From positions 1 to 11,826 of the IMG/VR virus record IMGVR_UViG_2917403263_000006: a stretch of 11,826 nucleotides of DNA; one strand, given 5' to 3'. Each line of letters begins with the position of its first letter. The first letter of the stretch is position 1. The position numbers and the translations under genes are program-made. The notes under the pieces are model-generated. The model was not told the DNA's origin. It worked only from the letters and a program-made list of their open reading frames with translations, and ran no database searches. This DNA comes from a virus. Lineage: Duplodnaviria; Heunggongvirae; Uroviricota; Caudoviricetes. This document shows, piece after piece, positions 230-11,826 of this stretch.

Positions 230-1315
230 CTAACGTTTCAACCAAAGGTCATCTACAGAAAACGAATCGAATTCATTCTCAGATGGAGAATAAATAAAGC
301 TCACTGTAAAATACGGTCTAACCAAAATCTCTAAAGTCACAACGTCACCATCACCATGAGTAAATGGGAATGCCGAATCTAAATCGCTTTTATTTTCAAT
401 ATAATCCAAATAAGGAATATCCACTTCAATAAAAACCCGTCTCAAATTAAAAGAATAGGCAATGTAATATTTATCCGCATCAATTGAAGTGATGCCTTCA
501 ATATAGCCATCCTCGAAATCTTCGATGACATCAACTCTAACATCCAAAACATTCGAAACTCTAGACTCAAAAATATTATTTTCAAGGTATTGACTAAGCA
601 TCATGTGATTAAAACTTGATAAATAATCGATACACTCACCTTCTAGAAACTCCTCGAAATAAGGCTCACTTCTTGCATGATCAAAAGCATGGATACTCTT
701 ATCAATAGATGATGTAACGAAGTCAAATAGCTTCCGATATGGAGTTATTTTTTGTGTTATGCCTAACTCTTCAATATCTCTTAGAAGATCATCATTAAAC
801 GTTGCAGGACCTTTACTGTTGGTAAAAAAGTCTGAGCTATTCTCAGTAATAAATACAAAATCATCATTACCCCCTGATGATTTGATATATTGAAGAAAAG
901 ATAACCAGATCAACGTATCACGGTATCCTTTTTCTTGTTCTGAGAAAGGTTTTATCTTTTCAAGGGCCCTACCAACCACCTTAGCATGTGGAATATCGTT
1001 ATAATCTATTAAAATTAAATTATCAACTTCCTTATTTAATATTTCTTTCAAATCATATTGTTCAATACCTAAGTTTTCAATTTTAAAATCTATTGGATTC
1101 TGATTAAGCTTTTTAATTTTACTAATAATGGAACGCATTTCATTTAATTGATTTTTGAGCTCTCTATTCCTGATATTGTTAGTCTCCTCAATTACTAAAT
1201 TTGATAATAACAAGTCGTTACATTCATTATTCAAAAAATGGAAAAGAAGTTTAAAATTAGCATTTTTAGCAAACCAATTATTGTAAAATATATTTGTATC
1301 CAAAAAAACTTTCAT
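230..1315 (-). CDS. Hypothetical cargo protein with N-terminal PIN-like nuclease domain and about 190-aa C-terminal extension of unknown function
   Basis: 361-codon ORF, ATG at 1315-1313, TAG at 232-230. N-terminus MKVFLDTNIF matches the first acidic motif of PIN domains (hhhDTNhh), with further acidic positions (VIEE, ILIDYND, FVFITENSSDF) at PIN-like spacing. Strongly AT-rich relative to the phage backbone. A TATAAT -10 hexamer lies on the - strand at 1357-1352. Confidence 0.6.
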   Translation of the reverse strand: MKVFLDTNIFYNNWFAKNANFKLLFHFLNNECNDLLLSNLVIEETNNIRNRELKNQLNEMRSIISKIKKLNQNPIDFKIENLGIEQYDLKEILNKEVDNLILIDYNDIPHAKVVGRALEKIKPFSEQEKGYRDTLIWLSFLQYIKSSGGNDDFVFITENSSDFFTNSKGPATFNDDLLRDIEELGITQKITPYRKLFDFVTSSIDKSIHAFDHARSEPYFEEFLEGECIDYLSSFNHMMLSQYLENNIFESRVSNVLDVRVDVIEDFEDGYIEGITSIDADKYYIAYSFNLRRVFIEVDIPYLDYIENKSDLDSAFPFTHGDGDVVTLEILVRPYFTVSFIYSPSENEFDSFSVDDLWLKR

Positions 1316-1838: not shown

Positions 1839-2669
1839 TTAATTTGTCCCATCACTAAAGAATTTGATTGCGTCAGTTAGTACATAGTCAATGAAAATTT
1901 TTACGTGGAAGACCTGAAAAACGCTATTTTCTGAGTTTTGAATGAAATCTACAGCTATATCTTTTAGGTTGATCAACCAGTTATATTCTTCAATCAGTCT
2001 AGTTCTGGCATCCGCATCAGAATAACGACTCCGTAAGCTAAATGCCAGTTTCCTCATGATAACTGGATCAAGTTTCCTATAGCTTTCAATGAAAACATCA
2101 GCAGGAACTAAGTGTAAAAAAGGTACGTCATGAAGATTTAACTGTCTATTATTAGAATGACTCAATTCAGATAACAACGATGATTTTCCCCTTTGTAACT
2201 CATCTCTGAACTGCAATGCAAATTCCGAAATTGATTCATCAAACCGTTTCTTCCTTGCTATTTTAATATGTTCAATAATGAGCTTAAAGTCATCACTATC
2301 CCTGTCAAGAAAACTTAAACTACGCCATCCCCTTAATTCGTTATAATGCGTTTGCGCATATTCCTTATGTACATCTTCAGCTCTCAGTCTATTATAATAA
2401 TTATTTATATTCTGTTTTGTCTCATTTATGAGATCATGAACATCATCTGTTGTTAGACCTTCTTTCGCCATTTCCAGCAAAATACTCGCTGTCATCAGGA
2501 GTTCACCTAAGGTAGTGATCTTACCTGAAAATAGGTTATCCTTAGCAATAGCGTACTGCTCATAAAGCATAGTTTCATTTAGTTCTCTATAGTTCCACAA
2601 ACACCTCCATGCTGGTGAATCGCTGCTTCTAAAAAAAACGCGTAACATCCAACTGAGCAAGAAGATCAC
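1839..2669 (-). CDS. Hypothetical protein, predicted largely alpha-helical; either a separate partner gene of the upstream NTPase or its C-terminal continuation across a frame break
   Basis: 276-codon ORF (first codon GTG at 2669; internal ATGs at 2648 and 2570 have weak RBS), TAA at 1841-1839. It overlaps the NTPase ORF end by 41 nt, across an A8 run at 2631-2638. Same AT-rich composition as the NTPase ORF. No recognisable catalytic motif. Confidence 0.5.
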   Translation of the reverse strand: MIFLLSWMLRVFFRSSDSPAWRCLWNYRELNETMLYEQYAIAKDNLFSGKITTLGELLMTASILLEMAKEGLTTDDVHDLINETKQNINNYYNRLRAEDVHKEYAQTHYNELRGWRSLSFLDRDSDDFKLIIEHIKIARKKRFDESISEFALQFRDELQRGKSSLLSELSHSNNRQLNLHDVPFLHLVPADVFIESYRKLDPVIMRKLAFSLRSRYSDADARTRLIEEYNWLINLKDIAVDFIQNSENSVFQVFHVKIFIDYVLTDAIKFFSDGTN

Positions 2670-3732
2670 CCGTTACCTTTCCATCACAGATTAGTTCTCT
2701 CCAAGACGCGCCATCCAGTAACTTCTCGGTTAATACAGGAGACGAATATTTCTCGACAATCATGTCATACTTACTTTTGACGCGTTCTTTACCCAAAAAC
2801 ATACCATAATTAACATTGCCGATTGAATTGAAATCCTCGTAGCTAAGATTCCCTCCCCGGTACTCCATCGAAAAAATTAACAATTGATGAAAAAACACCC
2901 TTATAAATTCATCGTTACTTAAATATTTATCTCCCAAAAGGGAAATAATTCGTTGTACATCGAGAAAGAACTGCCTCAAGTGTCTTAGATTATTATAATT
3001 CGCTGACACATAGAGGTCCTCTATTGTCTGCATATCTTCTTTAAATATATTAGCAACATGCAAACTACTAATTACGCTCAAGAAAATCTTACAAGCACTA
3101 TGTAAATCTGACGTTACTTCAAATGTTTTACCTACTAGCTTTTCTTTTGTTCTCATGTATTCATTGCGATATTTCTCATCATCATTATTTATTCGCTTTT
3201 CTCTATTGATTATTTCATCTTCATTGGCAACCAAGATCGCTTTGTATCCGTTTACTTCCACAAAGTGATTTATATATCCAAATAAGATTGGTAAATCTAC
3301 ACCAGCTCTCTCGACATCATCAAAGACCAGCACAAAACCATCTGGTTTTCTAGTAAAGTCGCTAAGATTAATGGTGGGAACATTGCTATTGATATCTACG
3401 TCAGATTTATTATCGCCATTAAGATCGATCTTGAAAGTAGCCTTAAGCGTATTTTTTAGTACATTTGCACCAAAGATAAGGGCTTTGTTTGATAGGACAG
3501 GATGCAATTGACGATAGAACTCATCTTCAATCTGCTCAATAGAGTTGACGCCATACAAGCTCACTTTTAGAAATTTGAACTCTGAATGTTTCTGCTTATA
3601 TTCTTCAAGAACTCGTTCAATGAACCAAGTTTTACCTGATCCCCAAGCACCTTTAAGCATAATGGCGTATTGAGGTTCAGTTTTAAGGCTAAGGTAATAT
3701 TCTATATAGTCTTTGATGTACGTATTGTGCAT
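2629..3732 (-). CDS. P-loop NTPase, KAP-like (Walker A GAWGSGKT near the N-terminus; Walker B-like VLVFDDVER)
   Basis: ORF with ATG at 3732-3730 (the track ORF starts at an upstream TTG at 3783), TAG at 2631-2629. LKGAWGSGKTWFI fits the KAP-family G-x-W-G-S-G-K-S/T P-loop signature; VLVFDDVERAG fits the KAP hhhhDD-x-(D/E)R Walker B pattern. No obvious transmembrane segment. AT-rich. Candidate -10 TATAAT on the - strand at 3847-3842. Confidence 0.65.
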   Translation of the reverse strand: MHNTYIKDYIEYYLSLKTEPQYAIMLKGAWGSGKTWFIERVLEEYKQKHSEFKFLKVSLYGVNSIEQIEDEFYRQLHPVLSNKALIFGANVLKNTLKATFKIDLNGDNKSDVDINSNVPTINLSDFTRKPDGFVLVFDDVERAGVDLPILFGYINHFVEVNGYKAILVANEDEIINREKRINNDDEKYRNEYMRTKEKLVGKTFEVTSDLHSACKIFLSVISSLHVANIFKEDMQTIEDLYVSANYNNLRHLRQFFLDVQRIISLLGDKYLSNDEFIRVFFHQLLIFSMEYRGGNLSYEDFNSIGNVNYGMFLGKERVKSKYDMIVEKYSSPVLTEKLLDGASWRELICDGKVTGDLLAQLDVTRFF

Positions 3733-4053
3733 TTTTAGTCCATTTTTATAAAATACATAAACATAGATGGTAAGTAGAGCCAAAGGCCAACTATGGAAAA
3801 TTCAATCGGTAGTGTACATTGTAAGGTTATTATTGGTAAATATTATAGGAATACCCATAATCTTACAAAATTCAGATTATCCGTTGCAAATTAGTCTGCC
3901 ATTCGTTAATTGACGAAAGATAGCAGAAGAAATGTTCGCTTCTGGCACAAAGCGGACGATCACTTATAAAAATGACCGCCCACCTTACGCCTTATTTCAC
4001 TCATTGCCCAAACTAGCCCCCATCAGAATGAATCCTCCTGGGGGCAACATTTC

Positions 4054-4287
4054 TTAATGCTGCCAGCTGTCGTCTTCCCACACCTTCTGCATAATTTTCA
4101 TCACTTGTTTTCTTTCTTCGTCCAGTTGCAGTCCGGTAAGTTCCACACCGTGAGAGCTACCTTTGCGGATACGAATTACCGTTTTGGGATACAGGGGGCG
4201 CAGATTGCGGTAAAGCTCGGATTCAAGGGCGTCCAGGATAGACTGGCTAATCTTCTGCTCTTTATCGATCATTATTTCAATGCGCAT
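4054..4287 (-). CDS. DinI-family protein; likely the C-terminal DinI-like domain or short product of a Tum-type SOS-inducible antirepressor
   Basis: 77-codon ORF, ATG at 4287-4285 preceded by GGTGA with 5-nt spacer, TAA at 4056-4054. MRIEIMIDKEQ...KIMQKVWEDDSW resembles E. coli DinI (MRIEVTIAK...ILQETWES). The frame is open upstream into the 4298-4486 ORF region. Confidence 0.7.
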   Translation of the reverse strand: MRIEIMIDKEQKISQSILDALESELYRNLRPLYPKTVIRIRKGSSHGVELTGLQLDEERKQVMKIMQKVWEDDSWQH

Positions 4288-4297
4288 AAAAGTCACC

Positions 4298-4486
4298 TCA
4301 ACTGATGACATCCATTGAGCGGTTGTATTCGTGGGTTCTGATTTTTGCCATGAGTTCATCAGTCAATTCAGAAACCCACTGCAAAGCCAGCCCCTTCTCT
4401 TCATCACTACACTCACTAGCCGCTACAAGCTTAAGAAAAAAATCAATGCGCTGGAGCTTCAAAGACTCCAAAAAATAGTCCTGCAT
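4298..4486 (-). CDS. Small ORF (62 codons), probably the N-terminal part of a tum-like antirepressor gene, separated from the DinI-like ORF by a frame break
   Basis: ATG at 4486-4484 preceded by GGAGG (4-nt spacer), TGA at 4300-4298. LexA box 40 bp upstream. Removing one base from the T5 run at 4342-4346 fuses it in frame to the DinI-like ORF, giving about 143 aa, close to the about 146 aa I recall for phage 186 Tum. Confidence 0.5.
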   Translation of the reverse strand: MQDYFLESLKLQRIDFFLKLVAASECSDEEKGLALQWVSELTDELMAKIRTHEYNRSMDVIS

Positions 4487-4526
4487 CTTTCCTCCTATAA
4501 CACCAAAGAAATATTGTATACATAAC

Positions 4527-4546
4527 CACTGTTTATATTTACAGTA
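4527..4546. promoter_or_regulatory. LexA operator (SOS box) CACTGTTTATATTTACAGTA upstream of the tum-like operon
   Basis: CTGT-N8-ACAG core at 4529-4544 with AT-rich spacer; 17 of 20 matches to the E. coli consensus TACTGTATATATATACAGTA. It overlaps -10-like hexamers (TATACT, TACAAT on the - strand) about 40-60 bp upstream of the 4486 start. Phage 186 tum is known to be LexA-controlled. Confidence 0.65.
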
Positions 4547-4559
4547 TATAATAATCTTA

Positions 4560-4591
4560 CTGATGTAAAACGTTTTTTTTACGTTCATCAG
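4560..4591 (-). terminator. Imperfect hairpin (CTGATG...CATCAG outer stem, AACG/CGTT inner stem, T8 loop) between gene A stop and the SOS promoter; possible early-operon terminator
   Basis: Inverted repeat read directly. The U-tract after the stem on the - strand is poor (UAAGAUUAUUA), so termination efficiency is uncertain. Confidence 0.3.
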
Positions 4592-4639
4592 CCTGATATG
4601 CTTGGTATTATTAAGAGCACGAATTGTTAACCCGCGTAA

Positions 4640-6764
4640 TTAATACAGGTTCCGCCACTTATCATCTTCCTGCAAACGCTGGTTCCGATAGAAGATACGC
4701 AGGCCTGCTCCTGACGGAATACTGCCGCCGCGAAGGAGTAAATCGACCTCTTTCTCGCTACCATCAAATCCTCTGGACTTCAGTTCATAGGCGAGCTGCT
4801 GTCGCTGATGGTCTGTAATTCGCTGTTTGTAGTCTTTACGCCGTTTCGGTTTCACCAGGCGTAACCTTGCTGCCAGTTCCCGGCGCTCTTTTTTGCTCAT
4901 ACTGTGCAGGTAATCGTGCAACTCCTTGTCATCCATGCGGGTGATATCCGTTCTGGTATCCCCATCAGCTGATTTGTCTTTCCCTTGTTGGTTCAAATTT
5001 TCAGCAAGGGGACAGTTATTGCCACGAGTCCAAGGGGCGCAAGCGCCCTGGTCGGCTGCCGCCTCCTGAACGTCAACGGCCTTACGAACCATTTTCCACT
5101 TCACGGCATGAGTGCAGATCTTGCCCTCTGCAATGGGTGACCAGATGCCATAAATACGAATGCCGTGATCGCCATAGGCGGTCGGCTCTTCGTTGATTTC
5201 ATAAGCGGTTCTGATCAGGTGATATTTGCGGGGAACCAGTACGCCGCCCTGCTTCATGATGTAGGTGGCAAAACAACCAGCATCAGCAGCAGCCAGGATG
5301 GCATCAAGGCACGGGTTATCCAGTACCGGCGCACCTGCTTTTTTGTCCCCCTGTTGCCTTGCCGCCTGACCAGCCAGCAATCGCAGTTCACGGTAAGCCT
5401 GACGCCCCGGAATGCCAAAGAAGCGGAATTGCTGAACACGATGCAGAGACGCCCAGGCATTAACGTATTCAGCGTTATCACGCAGGGATTTACCCGTTTC
5501 CTTGCTGATCTCGCCAGCCAGACCACGCCCGTCAATGTTCTTACTGATGTATTTCGCGATGTAGCTTGTTGGCGTACCTTTACGCGGGTTAATCAACTCA
5601 GACTTAAAGCGCGGCCCAGTGTTATTGCCCAGCTCCTCGCGGTCTTCACGGATGGCAAACTTACGCAGTAATGCAGTGATGGCGCGGCGGTTCTTTTTTG
5701 TGCATAAAACACAACAGGTGCCAGTGAACTGTACCGTCATGATGCGGCTCAGCCACCCGCACGCCATACCAGCGCAATCCGGCTTTGTGCATCGCCTTAC
5801 GAAATGCAGCAAACATGCCGACCAGATAATCACTGCTTTGTCTTACCGTCGCATTTGTCCAGGTCGGGTTGGGCCTGCCGTTATTTAGCGTGGAATGGAA
5901 ACGTGACGGACAGGTGATGGTGTAGAAAACGGCGCAGTCACCGCGCATTTCCGCGATAAGCTCCAGACCTTTAACACAGGCCATCATCTCATTGCGGCGA
6001 TGCGCAGGGTTGCTGCTGCTGGCGTTTACCACATCCTCCATGTCCAGCGTGTCGCCGTCTTCGTTCACCAGTTCATGAGAACGGAAAAACTCCAGCGACT
6101 TACGGCGCTGCTCACGTTTATGCATCACGGCTTCATAGCTGACATAGGGAGATGCTTTTTTGCTGACCAGGCAAACAGCACGCAACTGCTCTTCCCGCCA
6201 TTCGCAACGCATCTTCCATAATTTCCGGTACCACCAGTCGGCGCACAACATACGTGCCAGCGAACCCGGAATGAGTTCATAGGGCACGGGTTTACGGCGG
6301 TTTCTTTTCCGGCGGAGTTGCTCAAACGCAGGCGGTATGACATCCAGTCGCAGGGTTTCTGCTGCCACCTTTTCCCATGTCTTGCGGATTTCTTCTGGCT
6401 TAACATCATCGGTGGCGTACAAATCACCACAAGCGGCATCAAGACACATGCTCATATGCGCAGCGACAAGAGTAGACAGGCGTTTCACCTGATCCTGACT
6501 CATTTCAGGCAAGTTCAGCAGGCCGTCCAGCCCTTCATGGCTTGCCATAAAGCGAAAAGAAGTGGATAGCTGACTCTCGCGTACATGCTCCAGTCGTTCC
6601 AGACATGGCTTAATCGTCTCACGCAAATAGCGGGAATAAGCCTTTGGCCTGCCCAGGCTGCTGAAGTATTCAATACGTTGCATCAGCGGCTTGCTGATAT
6701 GGGAAGGCTGGGCGTTAACGTCCGCCAGTATGACCATGTCCGGATTAAAAACGCTGCTGCTCAT
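4640..6764 (-). CDS. A: Replication initiation endonuclease gpA (P2/186 gene A, HUH rolling-circle nickase); reading frame is broken at the T6/A6 run 5694-5699 in the sequence as given
   Basis: Two ORFs in frames offset by one (5661-6863 and 4640-5833). The upstream half ends with the HUH motif [15 protein letters not shown]. The downstream half carries the active-site pair [13 protein letters not shown] about 50 residues later, the same spacing as in P2 gpA. Deleting one A restores ...[14 protein letters not shown]... as one protein of about 700 aa. Start is uncertain (ATG 6764, 6737 or 6833; none has a strong RBS). Confidence 0.85.
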
Positions 6765-7056
6765 GCGCCAGCTTTGCCCGGCTAATGAGCTTATCCTGCT
6801 CCATTTCGCGTTGGACAGGATCACGGGATTCATTAAAGAAATAACGCTCCCAGACCTGATCACTCAGTGCCTCGAGGCGCAGTTGTTCCTGCTCGTTATC
6901 GGCAGCGTACAGAGTGATCAGGTTTGAAAGCGCAGAAACCGGCGCAACTTCCGCCGGGTCCAGATAAGGGTTAATAGCCTTTTTCGGGCTGTTCCATGAG
7001 AATGCTGCGGCGGCCTCGTTAAAGCCGCTGCAGTTGTTCATATCAGCATGGCTCAT
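6745..7056 (-). CDS. Hypothetical phage early protein (103 aa)
   Basis: ORF whose ATG overlaps the dam stop in an ATGA stop-start overlap (7053-7056), suggesting translational coupling. No motif recognised. Confidence 0.5.
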
Positions 7057-9870: not shown

Positions 9871-10440
9871 GTGGATTTCAATAGCGGTGGTAAGAAGGCC
9901 ATAGAACGTTTGGTTGAAGCATATGGGTTTGGTACCCGTCAGGCTCTCTGTGATCATTTAGGTGTTTCTAAGAGCACCATGGCAACACGCTATATGCGTG
10001 ATATTTTTCCGGCAGATTGGGTAATCCAGTGCGCACTAGAAACAGGCATCTCACTTCATTGGCTTACGACCGGGCATGGTTCAAAGCAAGCATCAGCAAA
10101 AACAAATGCTATAGAAGTAGTAAAATATTTATTGTCTGATGGAGACTTGCAGGAAGACGGGGTTTATATTTTTGATAAGGGATTTCTACCCTCTACGTTT
10201 AAAAATCCTTTTGTAGTCACAGTTAATAATTCTGAATTTATTTGTGATAAAGAATTTGATGATATACGTGATGGTAAATGGGTAATAAGTATTGATGGCG
10301 AAATAACAATCCGCGACATTACTCGTTTACCCGGTGGGAGAATCTTCGTTGAAGGTGGAAACAGAGCCTTCGAGTGTAAGATAGAAGATGTTGAAATAAT
10401 TGGAAAAATTATAAGTTTAACAGTTAAATATGTTAGATAA
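9871..10440 (+). CDS. cI: CI-type immunity repressor (phage 186 CI family)
   Basis: N-terminal segment IERLVEAYGFGTRQALCDHLGVSKSTMATRYMRD...CALETGISLHWLTTG matches the 186 CI DNA-binding domain (LDRICEAYGF...HCALETGANLQWLLTG as I recall it). Start placed at GTG 9871 (GGAGG 4 nt upstream), giving 189 aa against 192 for 186 CI; the track ORF starts at GTG 9784. Confidence 0.75.
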   Translation: MDFNSGGKKAIERLVEAYGFGTRQALCDHLGVSKSTMATRYMRDIFPADWVIQCALETGISLHWLTTGHGSKQASAKTNAIEVVKYLLSDGDLQEDGVYIFDKGFLPSTFKNPFVVTVNNSEFICDKEFDDIRDGKWVISIDGEITIRDITRLPGGRIFVEGGNRAFECKIEDVEIIGKIISLTVKYVR

Positions 10441-10833
10441 TACCGGGGGAAACTATGCTTGGTAAGGTATTTTTTGTGGTTTTATCATGCTCTTTGTTAT
10501 TAAACCCACTAACTACCTATGCTAAAAATTAATCCTTGTTCTGGGAAAAAGGGAGGTGTCTCTCACTGTACCTCCGATGGAAAATTTGTATGCAATGATG
10601 GGGCTATTAGTAAATCCAAAAAAATCTGTACTAAATACTCACGATAAATTTTGCTCTGATATCTGCGCCTAATATAACAATGAGGCGCAGGCTAACCACA
10701 AAAGTTACATACTCACATAACAAAAAATAGCCAACTTCATTATGGCTTCAGTGAGATGTATGGTCGCGGGATCTCATACATTGACACTGGTTATATATAC
10801 AGTAAAAATGCTCTCCACTGGAGGGCATTTTTT

Positions 10834-11826
10834 ATGGCAGTACGAAAACTCACCACAGGAAAATGGCTTTGCGAATGTTACCCCGCCGGACGTAGTGGAC
10901 GTCGTGTGCGTAAACAATTCGCCACCAAAGGCGAAGCTCTGGCTTTTGAGCGTCACACGATGGAAGAAACCGAAGCAAAGCCCTGGCTGGGTGAATCAGT
11001 GGATCGTCGAACACTGAAAGACGTGGTTGAGCTATGGTTCAAACTACATGGTAAATCTCTGACTGCTGGGCAGCATGTCTATGACAAATTGCTGCTGATG
11101 GTTGACGCTCTGGGCAATCCCCTTGCAACCGATCTCACATCTAAAATGTTTGCCCATTATCGAGATAAACGACTGACAGGTGAGATCTACTTCAGCGAGA
11201 AATGGAAGAAAGGAGCCAGCCCGGTCACCATTAACCTGGAGCAAAGCTATCTAAGTAGTGTTTTTAGCGAACTATCCCGCCTGGGCGAATGGTCGTATCC
11301 AAACCCACTGGAGAACATGCGAAAATTCACCATCGCAGAAAAAGAGATGGCATGGCTTACCCATGAGCAGATTGTTGAACTGCTGGCTGATTGCAAACGT
11401 CAGGACCCAATTCTGGCACTGGTAGTCAAGATATGCTTAAGCACAGGCGCACGCTGGCGAGAAGCAATAAACCTTACCCGATCACAGGTGACCAAATACC
11501 GAATTACCTTTGTAAGAACGAAGGGGAAGAAAAACAGAAGCATCCCTATCAGTAAAGAGCTTTACGAAGAGATCATGGCGCTTGATGGGTTCAATTTCTT
11601 CACAGACTGCTATTTTCAATTTTTATCCGTGATGGAAAAAAACGTCTATCGTGCTCCCTCGCGGTCAACTGACACACGTTCTGCGCCATACGTTTGCGGC
11701 GCACTTCATGATGTCGGGTGGAAATATCCTTGCTTTGCAAAAAATCCTCGGACATCACGATATAAAAATGACAATGCGTTACGCACATCTGGCACCGGAT
11801 CACCTGGAAACTGCATTACGGTTTAA
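10834..11826 (+). CDS. int: Tyrosine integrase (P2/186 family), 3-prime end beyond the window; reading frame breaks at the A7 run 11636-11642 in the sequence as given
   Basis: ATG at 10834 (MAVRKLTTGKWLCECYPAGRSGRRVRKQFATKGEALAFE is a typical P2/186-type integrase N-terminus). The conserved catalytic C-terminus VLPRGQLTHVLRHTFAAHFMMSGGNILALQKILGHHDIKMTMRYAHLAPDHLE is present only in the +1 frame after 11642. Deleting one A gives ...DCYFQFLSVMEKTSIVLPRGQLTH..., the same length as the 186 Int segment between TDAY and LPKGQ. Confidence 0.85.
   Translation: MAVRKLTTGKWLCECYPAGRSGRRVRKQFATKGEALAFERHTMEETEAKPWLGESVDRRTLKDVVELWFKLHGKSLTAGQHVYDKLLLMVDALGNPLATDLTSKMFAHYRDKRLTGEIYFSEKWKKGASPVTINLEQSYLSSVFSELSRLGEWSYPNPLENMRKFTIAEKEMAWLTHEQIVELLADCKRQDPILALVVKICLSTGARWREAINLTRSQVTKYRITFVRTKGKKNRSIPISKELYEEIMALDGFNFFTDCYFQFLSVMEKNVYRAPSRSTDTRSAPYVCGALHDVGWKYPCFAKNPRTSRYKNDNALRTSGTGSPGNCITV

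Follow-up and report, generated by a model that had tools for sequence, protein, structure and literature searches.

A two-cistron tum-type SOS induction operon, very probably intact, in a Fels-2-type prophage of the 186/P2 family

In coliphage 186, LexA represses the promoter p95, and SOS derepression yields the anti-CI factor Tum (PMC7708051). The two activities associated with this locus are not always carried by one polypeptide: tum of Fels-2 and PSP3 is split by a stop codon (Lemire et al., PMC3121763), and the upstream gene of PSP3 alone provides UV/SOS induction according to a personal communication quoted in two papers, among them the same work (PMC3121763). The GenBank record of PsP3 (NC_005340) correspondingly lists tumA, annotated as ‘UV induction of prophage’, and tumB. 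The Gifsy dinI-gfoA/gftA operons of Salmonella are likewise LexA-controlled and encode a DinI homologue and a small antirepressor in separate genes; they differ in that dinI comes first, and their antirepressors and repressors are unrelated (PMC3121763). The two-gene form of tum is already documented and ordinary, and is not a frameshifted copy of 186 tum.

The stretch of DNA analysed here (the window, 11,826 nt of the IMG/VR virus record IMGVR_UViG_2917403263_000006) represents the early region of a 186/P2-family prophage of the Fels-2 type (Felsduovirus). It shares 94-97% identity with Escherichia, Klebsiella and Salmonella prophages, and its genes include gpA, a Dam methylase, a DksA-like gene, CII, an Apl-like gene, a 186-type CI and an integrase. 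An earlier note, made from the letters alone, had correctly identified a tum-type SOS operon of a 186/P2-family prophage in it, and had read the operon as a single antirepressor gene split by a frameshift. We consider it very probable that the locus is instead an intact, wild-type two-cistron SOS induction operon, with the following features.

4298-4486, minus strand: ORF1, tumA-like gene of a putative antirepressor, 62 codons, ATG at 4486 and TGA at 4298, from the translation
4054-4287, minus strand: DinI-like gene, the tumB equivalent, 77 codons (77 aa), ATG at 4287 and TAA at 4054, from the match to PF06183
4342-4346, minus strand: run of five A (A5) within ORF1, read GCA AAA ATC (Ala-Lys-Ile); the proposed frameshift site
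4288-4300, minus strand: junction of the two genes, composed of the ORF1 TGA (4298-4300), a spacer of 10 nt (4288-4297) and the Shine-Dalgarno sequence GAGGTGA (4293-4299)
about 4527-4546, minus strand: LexA (SOS) box TACTGTAAATATAAACAGTG, a perfect TACTGT-N8-ACAGT
4541-4569, minus strand: putative p95-like promoter, TTTACA, 17 nt, TACTGT, with the -10 inside the LexA box, proposed by analogy with 186
4016-4045, minus strand: hairpin GCCCCCA...TGGGGGC 3' of the DinI stop, possibly a partial terminator like t95a of 186
9871-10440, plus strand: 186-type CI repressor (PF07022, PF16452), the presumed target of ORF1

The layout is that of the split systems, with adjacent same-strand cistrons of about 60 and 77 aa, the second of them DinI-like, downstream of gpA. 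In Fels-2 (NC_010463) the genes STM2728.Fels2 and STM2726.1.Fels2 are arranged in the same way, with 189 nt, 234 nt and a 10-nt spacer, and the pair lies, as in the window, between the gpA replication gene and a cargo region; the annotations of Fels-2 and of E. coli H6 both show this pair of genes of 189 nt and 234 nt. The protein of ORF1 is identical to Fels-2 STM2728 at 61 of 62 residues, and the DinI-like protein to STM2726.1 at 74 of 77. Fels-2 differs in having an orf97-like gene downstream, where the window has a KAP NTPase, and in its CI, which is 40% identical to that of the window (about 70% in the N-domain and about 25% in the C-domain). PsP3 also has a two-cistron tum, with a 60-aa TumA and a 77-aa DinI-like TumB, and its spacer measures 3 nt as against 10 nt in the window. 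The window and coliphage 186 have in common a LexA box that covers the -10 of the promoter, an antirepressor-type N-terminal segment with a DinI-like one after it, a separate DinI-like product (in 186 from an internal GTG with its own Shine-Dalgarno sequence) and, presumably, a 186-type CI as the target. The window departs from 186 in that 186 has both parts in one polypeptide of 146 aa with a linker of about 24 residues, whereas here two cistrons are parted by a TGA and 10 nt.

The assignment of the second cistron is straightforward. Its product matches PF06183 over profile positions 1-62 of 63 (E = 3.3e-21), is 41% identical to residues 71-146 of 186 Tum (E = 1e-24), and aligns end to end with PsP3 TumB; the DinI half of 186 Tum in turn matches the solved E. 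coli DinI (1GHH). GAGGTGA lies 5 nt 5' of the ATG at 4287 and overlaps the ORF1 stop codon, which bears out the earlier remark that the internal ATG has a good ribosome-binding site, and the DinI-like product is expected to be translated from it. By similarity of sequence, the second cistron would act in the manner of DinI, that is, by modulating RecA filaments. A hairpin at 4292-4309, covering the ORF1 stop and the DinI Shine-Dalgarno sequence, was considered as a translational-coupling element and rejected, as its z-score is -1.4 and it is unconserved in 10 other species.

The first cistron, preceded by the Shine-Dalgarno sequence AGGAGG at 4491-4496 (minus strand), is an intact, conserved gene and the likely antirepressor. 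It matches the 63-position profile phrog_698 over its full length (E = 3.6e-38), and residues 7-44 of 186 Tum match phrog_698, phrog_8554 and phrog_1993, as does ORF1, the agreement being at the profile level only. In PHROGs, four separate families of 61-66 aa are matched either by ORF1 or by the N-half of Tum. When ORF1 was compared with 186 Tum by pairwise BLASTP, no alignment was returned, so the homology is based on the common PHROG profiles and on the alignment of an artificial fusion described below; identity to 186 Tum in the N-part is about 21%. PsP3 TumA is weakly similar to ORF1, with few conserved positions. The predicted structure of ORF1 is a two-helix hairpin (AlphaFold pLDDT 89); searched against the PDB, this model matched only generic helical hairpins, and none of these fell below E = 1. 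A search by sequence recovered no solved relative from the PDB, and there was no match to a Pfam family. The antirepressor activity and its direction at CI would follow from the biology of 186 (PMC7708051).

Could ORF1 be a small LexA-controlled protein with some other role, in an intact operon whose prophage is induced through something else? The missing Pfam family and solved relative and the uninformative structural match, a generic helical hairpin, leave room for this reading, as does the occurrence of near-identical ORF1 beside very different CI proteins, a combination not to be expected of a tightly matched pair. Against it speak the profiles that ORF1 has in common with the N-half of 186 Tum, a position, LexA control and partner gene that are the same as in 186 and PsP3, the retention of ORF1 where DinI is lost, and a CI N-terminal domain which, at 69-97% identity over the loci concerned, offers a common target. 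We regard such another role as improbable and retain the antirepressor as the likely function of ORF1.

The CI of the window (PF07022, E = 2.5e-31; PF16452, E = 5.6e-28) shares 92% identity with the CI annotated in E. coli H6. Among 42 viral contigs whose ORF1 is 97-100% identical to that of the window, the CI C-domain is 30-95% identical to the window's and the N-terminal HTH domain 69-97%. Near-constancy of ORF1 in the face of variable C-domains and preserved N-domains suggests recognition of the DNA-binding domain of CI, and we offer as a tentative idea, one that may well prove wrong, that ORF1 is a generalist antirepressor directed at this conserved domain. If this were true, it could cross-induce Fels-2-type prophages of differing immunity.

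The perfect TACTGT-N8-ACAGT of the LexA box occurs once in the window, with 0.10 occurrences expected by chance; the box lies 42-60 nt upstream of the ORF1 ATG and matches the annotated LexA site of 186 p95 in position and form. Among the 34 loci compared (33 species and the window), 25 have CTGT-N8-ACAG 5' of ORF1. The predicted box would thereby have the tum operon driven from a LexA-repressed promoter. A sigma-70 consensus scan of 3850-4700 called no promoter, and the putative p95-like promoter is placed solely by analogy with 186, in which the -10 is formed by the first six bases of the LexA site. Downstream, the hairpin at 4016-4045 has a folding energy of -18.9 kcal/mol (z = -2.75 against shuffles) and stands at the place equivalent to that of t95a in 186; with a long loop and a weak T tail, it was passed over by the terminator scan.

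How would such an operon work? In the undamaged lysogen LexA would occupy the SOS box overlapping the -10 of the p95-like promoter. Upon DNA damage, self-cleavage of LexA would allow transcription of both cistrons. The product of ORF1, as the counterpart of the N-half of 186 Tum and of PsP3 TumA, would then bind the 186-type CI encoded 5 kb away and turn on the lytic promoter, and the DinI homologue, the counterpart of the C-half of Tum and of PsP3 TumB, made from its own Shine-Dalgarno sequence, would modulate RecA filaments and through them the SOS signal.

The earlier note took a different view, namely that a single tum had been broken by a one-base insertion in the A run, through mutation or sequencing error, with the antirepressor lost and the DinI-like product alone remaining. 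Several of the observations behind this view are accurate. Removal of one A from the A5 run at 4342-4346 yields an artificial fusion of exactly 143 aa with a C-terminal DinI-like domain, where about 143 aa had been predicted, and the note's description of 186 Tum as a protein of about 146 aa with C-terminal DinI homology agrees with its actual 146 aa and DinI domain at residues 87-145. The recommended alignment to 186 Tum covers nearly the whole length (residues 7-142, 31% identity, E = 7e-28). One-base homopolymer insertions also do break other genes in the window. The described overlap of the two ORFs stands in part: the DinI frame is open upstream to 4359 (the ORF listing gives 4054-4359), and both frames are free of stops over 4298-4359, while the delimited genes lie 10 nt apart. 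Of the 24-codon stretches in the window, taken over all six frames, 36% contain no stop, and the open overlap between ORF1 and the DinI frame is accordingly not beyond chance.

The comparison with relatives, however, contradicts the presence of a lesion. Over 4054-4486, comparison with Fels-2, with E. coli H6 and with Escherichia sp. MOD1-EC7003 shows no base gained or lost. The A5 run is present in Fels-2 and in Escherichia sp. MOD1-EC7003, and a 35-nt pattern searched in IMG/VR occurs in its A5 form in at least 120 contigs and in its A4 form in none. The decisive test is provided by selection. Across 30 distinct ORF1 sequences, pN/pS is 0.10 in the core (codons 1-47), and in the 15 codons after the A run (codons 48-62) it is 0.28 in the frame of ORF1, as against 1.0 in the fusion frame and 1.4 in the third frame. 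Purifying selection acts on the tail of ORF1 in the frame of ORF1, where it is coding, and the fused frame shows no selection. The upstream 62-aa ORF is, in other words, intact, and the DinI-like protein is not the only product left.

The survey of 34 loci (33 from different species, and the window) leads to the same conclusion. ORF1 has 62 codons in 30 of them, and its stop keeps its position while the codon varies between TGA, TAG and TAA. The spacer between ORF1 and the DinI ATG measures 9, 10, 11 or 12 nt in other species, always with a G-rich Shine-Dalgarno sequence, and the DinI gene accordingly falls in frame 0, +1 or +2 relative to ORF1, so that no single frameshift can be the common explanation; a fused reading is altogether precluded in most species, by the length of the spacer or by stop codons. 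The DinI partner is itself dispensable, being absent or decayed in 16 of the 34 loci: the gene is absent in 12 (L010, L014, L020, L024, L028-L034 and L037), and in four (L009, L019, L023 and L036) a DinI decayed by premature stops stands beside an intact ORF1. The 12 loci without DinI keep ORF1 and the LexA box, followed by varied cargo.

Larger samples give the same picture. Within a set of 80 IMG/VR loci (L045-L124), every one of the 79 evaluable contigs is split, 74 of them with the exact layout of the window. The locus is present in 1,048 of 5,426 complete E. coli genomes, and a search of these 1,048 for the fused allele found no exact match, the best reaching 99.0% with one gap. A profile built from stand-alone members and searched against 1.84 billion cluster representatives gave 149 matches with a median length of 68 aa, and a DinI domain is fused to the N-part in only two of the 149, P0354 (146 aa, of the 186 type) and P0344. 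Members of this family are as a rule small stand-alone proteins, and the fusion of 186 is the exception. Homologues that are naturally two ORFs, which the earlier note had named as grounds for abandoning its reading, are thus found in the published account (PMC3121763), in tumA/tumB of PsP3, and in the survey of 33 species and 80 viral contigs. With the natural split documented for Fels-2 and PSP3 in addition to the evidence above, we see hardly any chance that the window carries a broken single tum. In the absence of a frameshift, and with ORF1 intact, there is no evidence at tum for the inactivated SOS induction switch that had been suspected.

An intact operon could still make some fused protein if a programmed +1 frameshift or transcriptional slippage at A5 produced a 143-aa Tum beside the separate proteins. 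This reading draws on the fact that in the lineage of the window no stop interrupts the +1 frame between the A run and the DinI ATG, and on the fused ORFs created by loss of one A in a few genomes. The run of five A is nonetheless short for slippage and simply encodes the conserved Ala-Lys-Ile, and the +1 frame shows a pN/pS of about 1. In other species the DinI gene occupies frame 0 or +2, or else a stop shuts the +1 frame after 1-21 codons: the upstream extension of the DinI frame, 25 codons long in the window and its closest relative, closes within this range in 17 of the 21 other loci retaining DinI, and reaches 25 codons in L005 and 22 in L023, the latter with a decayed DinI. A conserved stimulatory structure is also missing at the junction, where the hairpin is unconserved and its z-score unremarkable (-1.4). 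We therefore judge programmed fusion to be very improbable. Its predicted mark would be a 16-kDa protein of 143 aa with a junction peptide such as MAKSEPTNTTAQW.

The fused form does exist as a rare allele on the background of intact two-cistron operons. A few fused 143-aa proteins are found in databases, which indicates that this form is viable as an ORF. A search with the artificial fusion recovered eight clusters of 135-144 aa, each of one or two member sequences, which change frame at differing points within the overlap, as expected for independent one-base deletions. Three loci (L039-L041, gene 3001-3432) encode the fused 143-aa P0241, and their run is A4, not A5; in the assembly that contains one of the three, gpA is likewise fragmented. 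Against a split background, the fused alleles represent derived variants or errors, the opposite direction to that of the proposed lesion. The three A4 loci may be independent events or sequencing errors. A G variant shared by these loci beside the A4 deletion was considered as a sign of descent from one allele, and this was rejected, the same G being present in many split E. coli alleles. As a secondary point, A5 losing one A occasionally re-creates a 186-like fused protein in nature. A different fused allele, P0247 (L042-L044), belongs to a prophage remnant beside carotenoid genes and is found on seven contigs.

Genuine frameshifts are present elsewhere in the window, judged against E. coli H6 and, where they cover the region, Fels-2 and Escherichia sp. 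MOD1-EC7003. The gpA replication endonuclease (4640-7056, minus strand) is in three ORF pieces owing to one-base insertions at 5691 (T to TT) and 6747 (A4 to A5), both absent from Fels-2 and E. coli H6 and the former also from Escherichia sp. MOD1-EC7003; this reflects either a sequencing error or a replication-defective prophage. The integrase (10834-11826, plus strand) has a one-base insertion in an A run at 11636, and its 98% identity to the integrase of E. coli H6 stops at residue 275, with the catalytic C-terminus out of frame. The KAP-family P-loop NTPase (1839-3783, minus strand), a cargo gene downstream of the tum operon which sits where 186 and Fels-2 have orf97 and matches the PADLOC candidate defence gene PDC-S49, is split into pieces of 384 aa and 276 aa at 2631, with A8 in place of A7. 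Two non-coding runs likewise exceed those of relatives by one base, T8 as against T7 at 4573-4580 and G6 as against G5 at 1681. The window thus displays an insertion bias in homopolymer runs, with four gene-breaking and two non-coding cases. All of these changes are +1 insertions in runs, which suggests sequencing error, although real decay may instead be the cause.

The viability or defectiveness of the prophage is decided by the frameshifts in gpA and the integrase, and not by tum. A two-ORF tum with a homopolymer nearby looks like a pseudogene to those who know only 186, and it is the normal state in Fels-2-type prophages. The principal use of the result is to avert mis-annotation: two ORFs at tum are no argument against SOS inducibility.

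Two further elements of the window may be mentioned. The cargo has a second gene, situated between the NTPase and the portal end: an ORF of 361 aa (230-1315, minus strand) with an N-terminal PIN_12 domain (E = 2.3e-27), which gave no match in PADLOC. At the other end of the window (10780-10833, plus strand), a LexA-like box with one mismatch, TACTGTATATATAACCAGT (minus strand, 10786-10804), lies in the spacer of a TTGACA...AAAAAT promoter-like site and is followed, just 5' of the integrase ATG, by a hairpin with a T run; a close variant recurs in 23 of the fetched loci.
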